A stretch of 63,533 nucleotides of DNA, filler included, from Collodictyon triciliatum (Eukaryota): the NCBI GenBank assembly GCA_043381765.1. It is 10 parts of 10 records of this genome, joined end to end, with 100 filler letters (N's around TTAATTAATTAA, not from the genome) between each part and the next. Parts side by side here need not be neighbours in the genome. Positions count along the whole stretch, not along the records: positions 59,261 to 63,533 come from JBHJMP010004447.1; 9 more parts are not named here. One strand, given 5' to 3'. Position 1 is the first letter of the stretch. Each line of letters begins with the position of its first letter. The notes below the pieces were generated by a model. That model was not told the origin of the DNA. It saw only the letters and a list, made by a program, of their open reading frames with translations, and did no database searches. Shown one piece after another: positions 59,262 to 60,645 of the stretch. A program made the translations under genes and the position numbers.

Positions 59262-60645
59262 CTGCGCTTTATAAATAAAAAAGTTTCTAAAAATGTAGAA
59301 AATACAGAAGCAATTAAAAAGGCAGAGTTATCAAGCTTAAAAAAAAAAAAAAAAGACATCTCCAAGAATCTCGAAATACCGGAACAATATAATGAATGAA
59401 CTAAATGCATTTGCATCATATCATTCCCAACGATATTGTAAATGGTATCGAATATGGTGTCAAAGTCAATACAAATAAGTACATTCCATGTCTGATTTAC
59501 ATGAATCGCATTTTTGAGGGCATTGGAACCACACTGTTTCAACCAATCTCTATAAAAACTAACAATATACCATGTCATATTACTCTAGATACCGCATGTT
59601 TGATATATCTATTAGTACCAACTGGAAAAACATCATTAATGAAGAATATATCAGGATGCAAAGAGGTACTATGAGATAAGTTCTTTGAAATGAAGAAGAG
59701 GGTCTTTCATCAAAGAGACTACAATTTTATATACATGATACAAACAAACAGCTAAGCGGTGTCATTATTGTTTGAAAAGAAAGGTATTTCAAATTCAAGA
59801 TTCAAATATAAAAAAAAAAACCAAGTATATGTCTATATACATGAACTTTCCGATGAGCAGTTATCTTCATTAGCGACAAAAAAAAAATAATTGGAGTGGA
59901 CGCAGGCAAGTTTAATTTGGTTTAAATGGTGGATGAGACAGGTAAGCAATTACGTTATACTGCACACCAAACAAGACATGATAGCAAATCTCTTAAAAAT
60001 CACAAAATACCCTTGCGCAAGAAAAAAAAAAGTACAATTCTTCAGGTATATGCATGGTAACAGATTTACAAAGTGCTGTTTCTTTTGGTCTCAGGACTTT
60101 TGAAGAGAATCAACAGTTTGAGACATCAAGAGTATCTTTAATCGATTTAGAGACAGAACTGAGTAAACATAATTCATGCACGGTCGATTATGAAAAAAAT
60201 TCGAAAATATTTATCTATGAAATAAAGATAACAGTTAGAATTATCTAGATTTTATGAACACATAACTTTTCGAAAGATGAGATGGAGACAGTATGTTAAT
60301 ACAAAAAGAAGTGAACAATTGTTTATGGACCGAATCGAAAAGACATTTGGCAAGGATGTTGTACTGGCGTATGGATACTGCAGCAGAAAATGTCAGATGA
60401 AACATTTTATGCCATCAATCGGAAGAGGATTACGAAAAATACTATCCAAACGTTTTGAAATATTTAGTGTAAATGAACTTAGAACCTCCAAGATGTGTTG
60501 CAACTGTGAAAAAGAACTGGAATATATGAAGCCGAAAGGAAATTCCAAAAAAAAGGTGTATAGATGTCTCATATGTAAAGAATGCAATCGCTCAGAAAGC
60601 AAACAAAGTGTATTTTTGACAAGGGACTTTAACAGCGCTAAAAAT
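59262..60645 (+). pseudogene. Degenerate Fanzor (eukaryotic TnpB/OMEGA-family RuvC nuclease), 5'-truncated by the scaffold end
   Basis: Across shifting frames: LRFINK; LFQPISIKTNNIPCHITLDT; MIQTN..VSLLF; RuvC-I IGVDAGK (GAC 59899-59901); LRYTAHQTRHDS; ETELSKHNSCTVDYEK; FRKMRWRQY..SEQLFMDRIEKTFG..VLAYG..GRGLRKIL; RuvC-II VNELRTSK (GAA 60475-60477); CCNC..CKEC Zn finger; RuvC-III TRDFNSAKN (GAC 60625-60627). In-frame stops at 59397, 59672 and 59923, plus frameshifts. Confidence 0.88.

Follow-up and report, generated by a model that had tools for sequence, protein, structure and literature searches.

A decayed Fanzor1 remnant of giant-virus type in a scaffold of Collodictyon triciliatum

In a window of 63,533 nucleotides (nt) from the genome assembly of the protist Collodictyon triciliatum (GCA_043381765.1), by which we mean the whole stretch of DNA that was analysed, we found the remnant of a Fanzor gene at 59262-60759 on the plus strand. 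Fanzors are eukaryotic RNA-guided nucleases. The remnant is distributed over three reading frames and corresponds to about residues 157-648 of P0001, an intact homologue of 648 amino acids (aa). We read it as a 5'-truncated and dead copy of a Fanzor1 gene of the giant-virus type (DUF8286), which belonged to a mobile multi-copy family and decayed neutrally, and we assign this reading a probability of roughly 0.9. The copy itself is dead: it cannot make the protein because about 156 codons are missing, the frame changes four times, six stops interrupt it and 16 invariant residues are lost.

DUF8286 Fanzor1 genes occur mostly in giant viruses (Nucleocytoviricota), where they form a compact unit of ~2.4 kb. 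If intact, the encoded protein would most likely cut double-stranded DNA under RNA guidance, with a split RuvC site composed of the DPG aspartate, an alternative glutamate that immediately precedes a C4 zinc ribbon and the RD aspartate. Its partner would be a structured omegaRNA, transcribed from the 3' end of the gene itself as far as the right border of the element. A nuclease function of the family is suggested by its homology to the biochemically and structurally characterised proteins SpuFz1 and GtFz1 (PMC10432273) and PpFz1. Numerous diverged copies, found in freshwater metagenomes and in one or more sequenced organisms, point to amplification of the family as a mobile element, by which the window copy would have arisen, and later neutral decay would have proceeded largely through G/C-to-A/T changes and homopolymer slippage.

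The occurrence of Fanzor1 in protists and giant viruses has already been published (PMC10432273, PMC3627910). One more dead copy adds little alone, and the remnant is a degenerate member of a known Fanzor1 class and of modest interest. A high-copy and partly decayed Fanzor1 of the giant-virus type in a eukaryotic nuclear scaffold would, on the reading given above, be direct evidence of genome traffic between giant viruses and their hosts. Additionally, the analysis brought to light the viral unit, in which the Fanzor1 open reading frame (ORF) is accompanied by a covarying 3' RNA that terminates at a right border of sharp conservation; a small ORF, likewise conserved, often lies upstream. This viral DUF8286 unit represents a compact natural system and a candidate for guided cleavage.

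Reconstruction of the remnant and assignment to Fanzor1

Three-frame translation of 59262-60763, with homologues placed by tblastn, allowed us to recover about 496 codons in five frame-consistent pieces (Table 1). The original prediction had proposed that fragments in several frames form one collinear protein of about 450 residues at 59262-60645. The order of the tblastn matches against P0001 confirms the collinearity, and every block that had been named is present on the plus strand; the proposed start holds, whereas the end has to be moved to ~60759. Of these blocks, LFQPISIKTNNIPCHITLDT and MIQTNS*AVSLLF are read on the plus strand in the frame of 59264. The block IIGVDAGKFNLV* is in the frame of 59263, with GVDAG at 59893-59907, and the same frame contains NELRTSK (60472-60492), CCNC (60496-60507), CLICKEC (60565-60585) and RDFNSA (60622-60639, in the block TRDFNSAKN). 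A search with the longest fragment (60232-60660, 143 aa) retained eight of 57 candidate proteins, and the best of them, P0001, matched with an E value of 1.1e-60, 73% identity and 100% coverage of this C-terminal fragment. When all eight proteins were compared with the window by tblastn, they matched at the remnant locus only, with a summed E value of 4e-125. With an X placed at each break, the continuous reading agrees with P0001 at 284/463 positions (61% identity). Judged by sequence comparison, the collinear match is far beyond chance.

The superfamily was defined by Bao & Jurka 2013 through the pattern D-X(125,275)-[TS][TS]-X-X-C4 zinc finger-X(5,50)-RD (PMC3627910). Yoon et al. 2023 characterised the Fanzor lineage by a DPG motif together with an alternative glutamate in RuvC-II (PMC10711439), and the rearranged RuvC-II glutamate likewise appears in Jiang et al. 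2023 (PMC10530073). In the window, the pattern is present as the D of GVDAG, the TS of NELRTSK, the cysteines of CCNC..CLICKEC and the RD of TRDFNSA, which are collinear only across two frame changes. In P0001, the corresponding spacings are 193 residues between D364 and T558 and 12 residues between C590 and R603. Across 65-66 aligned relatives, D364-P365-G366-K367, E555, T558-S559-K560, C562, C565, C587, C590 and R603-D604 are invariant, and both the DPG motif and the alternative glutamate are thus features of the family. The window copy retains the D, the E, the TS, the four cysteines and the RD, and its DPG has decayed to DAG. The earlier claim of an inactive copy in which the catalytic D/E/D codons survive therefore agrees with what we observed, that is, stops and frameshifts together with a conserved D, E, D and CxxC..CxxC finger. 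Residue E555 (N-E-x-x-T-S-K) aligns with the glutamate of 'DEYKTS' in SpuFz1 and is probably catalytic.

The assignment to Fanzor1 was examined with a family profile built from seven intact relatives, which was searched against all PDB chain sequences. The profile matched PpFz1 of Parasitella (E 7.9e-56), SpuFz1 of Spizellomyces (E 1.8e-54, profile positions 3-603) and GtFz1 of Guillardia (E 2.6e-43). The next match was unrelated (E 0.087), and no Fanzor2, TnpB or Cas12 chain was found at E<=1. A first AlphaFold model of P0001 from seven sequences was unusable (predicted local distance difference test (pLDDT) 46.9), and a model from a 65-row alignment reached a pLDDT of 77.0 and a predicted template modelling (TM) score of 0.70. 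In a Foldseek search of the PDB with the latter model, SpuFz, PpFz and GtFz ranked first (E 1.3e-22 to 2e-19, TM 0.52-0.62), followed by weaker matches to Cas12f (6e-6), the mimivirus Fanzor2 ApmFz2 (1e-4) and TnpB (~1e-3). Sequence profile and predicted fold hence support the view that the family of the remnant is Fanzor1 rather than Fanzor2 or TnpB. The Fanzor/TnpB architecture had been staked on a profile match and on a RuvC fold; both were found, the profile in three Fanzor1 proteins and the model in the same structures first.

The comparison with known systems fits this placement. SpuFz1 (8gkh, 9ceu-9cez), PpFz1 (9cf0-9cf3) and GtFz1 (9cer-9cet) have the DPG aspartate, the glutamate beside TS-x-x-C4 and the RD motif in common with the remnant family, although their identity to the P0001 model is only 18-20%. 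Compared with PpFz1, the remnant family is shorter and occurs mostly in giant viruses, and the window copy is a pseudogene. Fanzor2 (ApmFz2, 9b0l) and TnpB (ISDra2 8h1j, ISFba1 8iaz) have the RuvC/zinc-ribbon core and the use of a 3'-end omegaRNA in common with it. In contrast to the remnant family, they lack the large N-terminal half, they gave no profile match at E<=1, and their fold matches remained at E 1e-4 to 1e-3 with a TM of 0.17-0.30. Bao & Jurka (PMC3627910) described Fanzor1 elements from amoebozoans and large DNA viruses that carry the same motif and are likewise mobile, linked to viruses and found in protists. However, these elements ride in Sola2, Mariner, IS4, Helitron or MuDR transposons with terminal inverted repeats (TIRs) and target-site duplications (TSDs), whereas no transposase or TIR could be assigned to the remnant.

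Giant-virus relatives and their 3' RNA module

A resemblance to Fanzor1 proteins of nucleocytoplasmic large DNA viruses had been suggested from the motifs, and it was corroborated by three lines of evidence. In a scan of IMG/VR, 246 of 301 candidate stretches encode a relative, and 80 loci were kept, many of them on contigs of giant virus metagenome-assembled genomes and with 38-47% identity over almost the entire protein. A single-segment match was obtained for 75 of the 80 loci, and 69 contain an ORF of at least 590 aa, most of the shorter ORFs being cut by contig ends. Among DUF8286 relatives altogether, the full-length identity is 38-48%. The Atlas clusters nearest to P0001 belong to PF26935 (DUF8286), named 'transposase', are 92-100% viral and are most commonly assigned to Nucleocytoviricota. 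Furthermore, in one of the viral loci (L020) the Fanzor1 gene adjoins a gene for an Rpb2 protein of 1644 aa. In a collection of 5.8 billion protein clusters, we found 242 relatives at E<=1e-20 among 7037 candidates, and all 120 that were listed carry PF26935. The best relative after P0001 is only 46% identical. A metagenome scan with P0001 gave no relative, and one with the window fragment gave two distant loci only, with 39% and 52% identity over parts.

These DUF8286 (PF26935) 'transposase' proteins of Nucleocytoviricota and metagenomes represent the remnant's own family and have the same invariant residues. In a quick tree calculated from 72 rows under LG+G4, P0001 is paired with the window copy, with a support of 100 in the Shimodaira-Hasegawa-like approximate likelihood ratio test and a long stem of 0.81, separate from the other DUF8286 proteins and outside the bulk of the viral rows. 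The tree is midpoint-rooted only, and no direction of transfer follows from it. A full-text literature search for 'DUF8286' returned no paper; supplementary tables of Fanzor surveys may already list the viral subfamily. P0001 and many relatives are located on metagenome contigs of 2.0-3.5 kb, near the unit size of ~2.4 kb, which is a typical assembly effect of repeated mobile units.

The omegaRNAs of TnpB and Fanzor are described as overlapping the 3' end of the gene and stopping at the border of the element (PMC10432273). In the viral loci, nucleotide homology extends beyond the stop codon by a median of ~85 nt, to ...GGCGTTTTAAATG-N6-AAGGTGTAA (59 flanks), and reaches upstream to ~420-460 nt before the start codon (56 flanks); these limits define a viral unit of ~2.4 kb. 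In the last 60 nt of the ORF together with the tail (~145 nt, 46 sequences), we identified 34 conserved pairs arranged in four helices, seven of them with compensatory changes. In a control count, 97.6% of the cells were paired compared to 92.2% in shuffles, none of 500 shuffles reached 97.6%, and 72 cells showed double changes compared to a mean of 24.5; when the partner columns were slid, 44-60% were paired. Based on this covariation, the viral 3' module is well supported as an omegaRNA-like scaffold of the giant-virus Fanzor1 subfamily.

The module is located at the 3' ends of the Fanzor1 ORFs in L009-L080, for example at L020:7801-7943, and ends at GGTGTAA where the homology between loci stops. 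The conserved TTGATTTTAC is protein-coding (VDFT) in some viral members and lies after the stop in others. A covariance model of the module also matched the outlying loci L002 (E 0.014), L005 (E 0.085) and L082 (E 0.00079), the match to L001 (E 0.27) not being significant. The match in L082 (positions 21-140, minus strand, 34.5 bits) lies on a metagenome contig of 2.3 kb beside a short Fanzor-like match.

The viral units often contain a further small gene. Within the conserved 5' region, just upstream of the Fanzor1 ORF, 43 of 62 loci have a plus-strand ORF of at least 50 aa, and 30 of the 43 belong to one family (L020:5623-5922, plus strand, and the same position in 29 other IMG/VR loci). Its products of ~85-100 aa are K/E-rich and probably form a coiled coil, with the motif LKKYTAPxRSKxYYExHKEE...EKKKEYAxxAYLxKKEK and no Pfam match. 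This small protein may be a partner of the unit. In L001, L002 and L004, a different small ORF occupies the same upstream position.

Decay, copy number and origin of the remnant

The window copy has no uninterrupted full-length ORF. It carries two TGA and four TAA stops in frame and four frame changes (Table 1). Over the covered range, 86 columns are invariant in 66 relatives; the window copy agrees with 70 of them and has lost 16, the latter including W196, W288, D313, G314, P365, Y372 and W523. A GT..AG interval at 60046-60094 was considered as an intron and rejected, as it runs straight into a stop.

In order to place this decay among other copies, we used four public sequencing runs (X1-X4, of which X2 and X4 are labelled as freshwater metagenomes), whose contigs were compared with the window at >=80% identity. 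The contigs are short, those in the listed rows measuring 61-362 nt; each depth was summed over contigs, and the differences reported here are taken from those listed. X1 contains 284 contig pieces, namely 29 at >=99%, 73 at 95-99%, 86 at 90-95% and 96 at <90% identity; the other three runs contain 17-56 pieces each. No RNA run was listed among the sequencing-run matches. Other copies carry TGG, TCA or TAC at stop sites of the window copy (Table 1), and the window stops are therefore substitutions. The A run at 60193 is shorter by one A in about half of the X1 depth (60.6/128.8), and that at 60022 is shorter by two A, which restores the frame, in X4 (126.5/136.3). The family is thus large and diverged, and the window copy is a decayed member of it, in which some defects are private and others shared. 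The idea that intact copies exist elsewhere thus gains from the sense codons that other copies have at several of the stops, whereas a full-length intact copy was not seen among these short contigs.

Table 1 Features of the remnant and its scaffold, and base differences in other copies
Feature	Position	Strand	Details
Scaffold join	59161..59260	.	N44, linker TTAATTAATTAA (59205-59216), N44; separates two different scaffolds
Piece 1	59262..59402	+	Frame of 59262; P0001 ~157-197; TGA 59397 at invariant W196
Piece 2	59408..59884	+	Frame of 59264; P0001 200-359; holds LFQPISIKTNNIPCHITLDT and MIQTNS*AVSLLF; TGA 59672 at invariant W288; TAA 59753 opposite P0001 L315
Piece 3	59887..60027	+	Frame of 59263; RuvC-I IIGVDAGK, aspartate kept; TAA 59923 at invariant Y372
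Piece 4	60030..60197	+	Frame of 59262; P0001 ~405-462, helical insert
Piece 5	60199..60759	+	Frame of 59263; P0001 ~463-648; TAA 60223 and TAA 60229, both private; GYC in place of invariant GDW; alternative RuvC-II glutamate; CxxC..CxxC zinc finger (60496-60507 and 60565-60585); RuvC-III RDFNSA
Frame change 1	near 59403-59407
Frame change 2	59878-59887		A10 run; entry to piece 3
Frame change 3	60022-60031		A10 run; entry to piece 4
Frame change 4	60193-60199		A7 run; exit from piece 4
tblastn match	59268-59396	+	P0001 157-195
tblastn match	59408-59884	+	P0001 200-359
tblastn match	59881 onwards	+	P0001 358-407
tblastn match	59997-60197	+	P0001 396-462
tblastn match	60208-60702	+	P0001 466-629
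Difference A>G	59399		TGA to TGG; X1 depth 78.9/89.5
Difference A>G	59674		TGA to TGG; X1 depth 183.1/240.9; all of X2 and X4
Difference A>C	60224		TAA to TCA; all depth in all four runs
Difference A>C	60231		TAA to TAC; all depth in all four runs
Difference T>G	60376		With 60381 restores GDW; X1 depth 199.5/259.2
Difference C>G	60381		With 60376 restores GDW; X1 depth 193.4/260.8
A18 run	60753..60770	+	Approximate end of the ORF-equivalent; X1 multi-copy homology stops there
Best module match	60809..60935	+	Filters off, 10.1 bits, E 0.48, 4.3 kb searched; non-significant, not claimed as part of the element
P/Q-rich, GC-rich open frame	61300-62730	+	With (CCAAAC)n and (CAA)n tracts, then a long (CTTTCTTTTT)n pyrimidine repeat

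Several results weigh against the reading of the remnant as a decayed mobile Fanzor1 copy. Pfam, applied to the five fragments, gave only PF07282 (Cas12f1-like TNB) with E 0.0095 and 16.5 bits compared to a cut-off of 26.3, and intact relatives gave no match in the Pfam set scanned, which was without PF26935. Pfam alone would consequently have missed the Fanzor, and the identification was reached via the relatives. In the parts of the literature that were available, we found no test of nuclease activity for the DUF8286 subfamily. The ends of the element, TIRs and TSDs are not definable because the 5' end lies beyond the start of the scaffold; a repeat search of this scaffold returned low-complexity repeats only, with no TIRs and no meaningful inverted repeats. 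An omegaRNA, which the original prediction had considered for intact copies, was not detected at this locus: downstream of the remnant, the covariance model of the viral module with default filters found no match at E<=10 and an nhmmer model found nothing. The pattern GGCGTTTKAAAT is rarer in the window than in shuffles and absent near the remnant. In this respect, the window differs from the viral DUF8286 loci, in which the 3' RNA module is recognisable; the P0001 lineage may carry a diverged RNA. Regarding the decay, three of the four frame changes lie in A runs of 7-10, which are prone to assembly error, and the true number of frameshifts may be lower. The exact locus is in no public run, as no run contained half of the sampled words and all shares were <=0.09. 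Finally, the shorter A run at 60022 occurs in no X1 contig (0 of depth 256.6), and this frame change may be common to the whole family in the X1 organism rather than private to the window copy.

Two other origins have to be weighed. The remnant could be part of a degraded integrated segment of a giant virus, that is, an endogenous viral element, instead of a free-standing transposon copy. The subfamily is found overwhelmingly on viral contigs, the copy beside the Rpb2 gene in L020 included, and Bao & Jurka reported Fanzor1 elements within integrated virus fragments of a brown alga (PMC3627910). Moreover, the scaffold is short and begins at the remnant, so that no 5' flank is in view. We nevertheless hold this origin to be improbable. 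The flank at 60760-63533 looks host-like and not viral, given its P/Q-rich ORF with a GC content of 57-60% (61362-61961, downstream of the remnant), its CAA and CCAAAC microsatellites and its pyrimidine-rich repeat, and no other viral gene was seen on the scaffold. The 284 diverged pieces of X1 are confined to the ORF part, a pattern more in keeping with a small unit that multiplied than with the insertion of one virus.

The second possibility is a retroposed (processed) copy of a Fanzor mRNA that ends in a poly(A) tail, the A18 run. The X1 pieces cover 59327-60756 with none in 60757-61081, so that multi-copy homology ends at the A18 run and at the end of the ORF-equivalent. No 3' RNA module follows, and one Fanzor1 clade has been associated with long interspersed nuclear elements by Jiang et al. 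(PMC10530073). However, A/T runs are very common in the assembly, with 68 of >=10 and 18 of >=16 in the 63.5-kb window, and several are located at scaffold ends. Since contigs break at A/T runs, the stop of X1 coverage may be technical. In addition, the reading frame remains open through the A18 run to 61063, and a contig of X4 resembles ~60776-60928, beyond the run. The coverage bins of X4 span 60757-60951, with five differences in one contig (60812-60879), and 60952-61016 has no contig cover in any of the four runs. The A18 run may represent the 3' limit of the repeat unit, a poly(A) tail or a mere break of contig assembly, and overall we see only a slim chance for retroposition of this copy.

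It is hardly conceivable that the gene is functional and that its breaks reflect assembly errors, programmed frameshifts, introns or an unusual genetic code. In favour of this idea, two TGA codons fall on invariant Trp positions and one TAA on an invariant Tyr, three frame changes sit in homopolymers and introns are described for some Fanzor genes (PMC10530073). On the other hand, TGG encodes Trp elsewhere in the remnant (MRWRQY), TAA is found at Leu, Ser and Phe positions of P0001 as well, other copies have sense codons at the stop sites, 16 invariant residues including P365, W523, D313 and G314 are replaced, and neighbouring ORFs of 438-623 aa are open under standard stops.

Within the preferred reading of a decayed mobile Fanzor1 copy, we raise one extension tentatively and regard it as rather unlikely. 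The window copy and P0001 would represent a distinct Fanzor1 lineage that came from giant viruses and reached hundreds of copies in a protist nuclear genome. It would perhaps consist of the ORF only, without the viral-type 3' RNA module, and be mobilised in trans or by retroposition, and some copies might encode an active nuclease.

Scaffold setting of the remnant

The window is a chain of small scaffolds. Nine linkers of the form N44-TTAATTAATTAA-N44 lie at 6617, 12596, 19233, 25901, 32571, 39232, 45891, 52551 and 59205, with a spacing of ~6.5 kb, and genes on the two sides of a linker are consequently not true neighbours. The first base of the remnant, 59262, directly follows the last join. 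The first ~156 codons are thus absent because the scaffold starts at the remnant and not because of a neighbouring gene. Likewise, a Cys-rich ORF and an (ATA)n tract before the join at 59161 lie on a different scaffold, outside the neighbourhood of the remnant.

On the remnant's own scaffold, the sole apparent host gene is the P/Q-rich open frame downstream (Table 1), which gave a weak, sub-threshold match to TFIIA. An Rfam scan of the window at gathering scores returned nothing. A/T runs of 16-72 bases begin or end several scaffolds in the window. The preceding scaffold contains two long overlapping open frames of 543 and 438 aa at 56100-59004 on the plus strand, in which FG-GAP repeats precede a region of Cys-rich repeats; the two frames probably encode one large extracellular protein.

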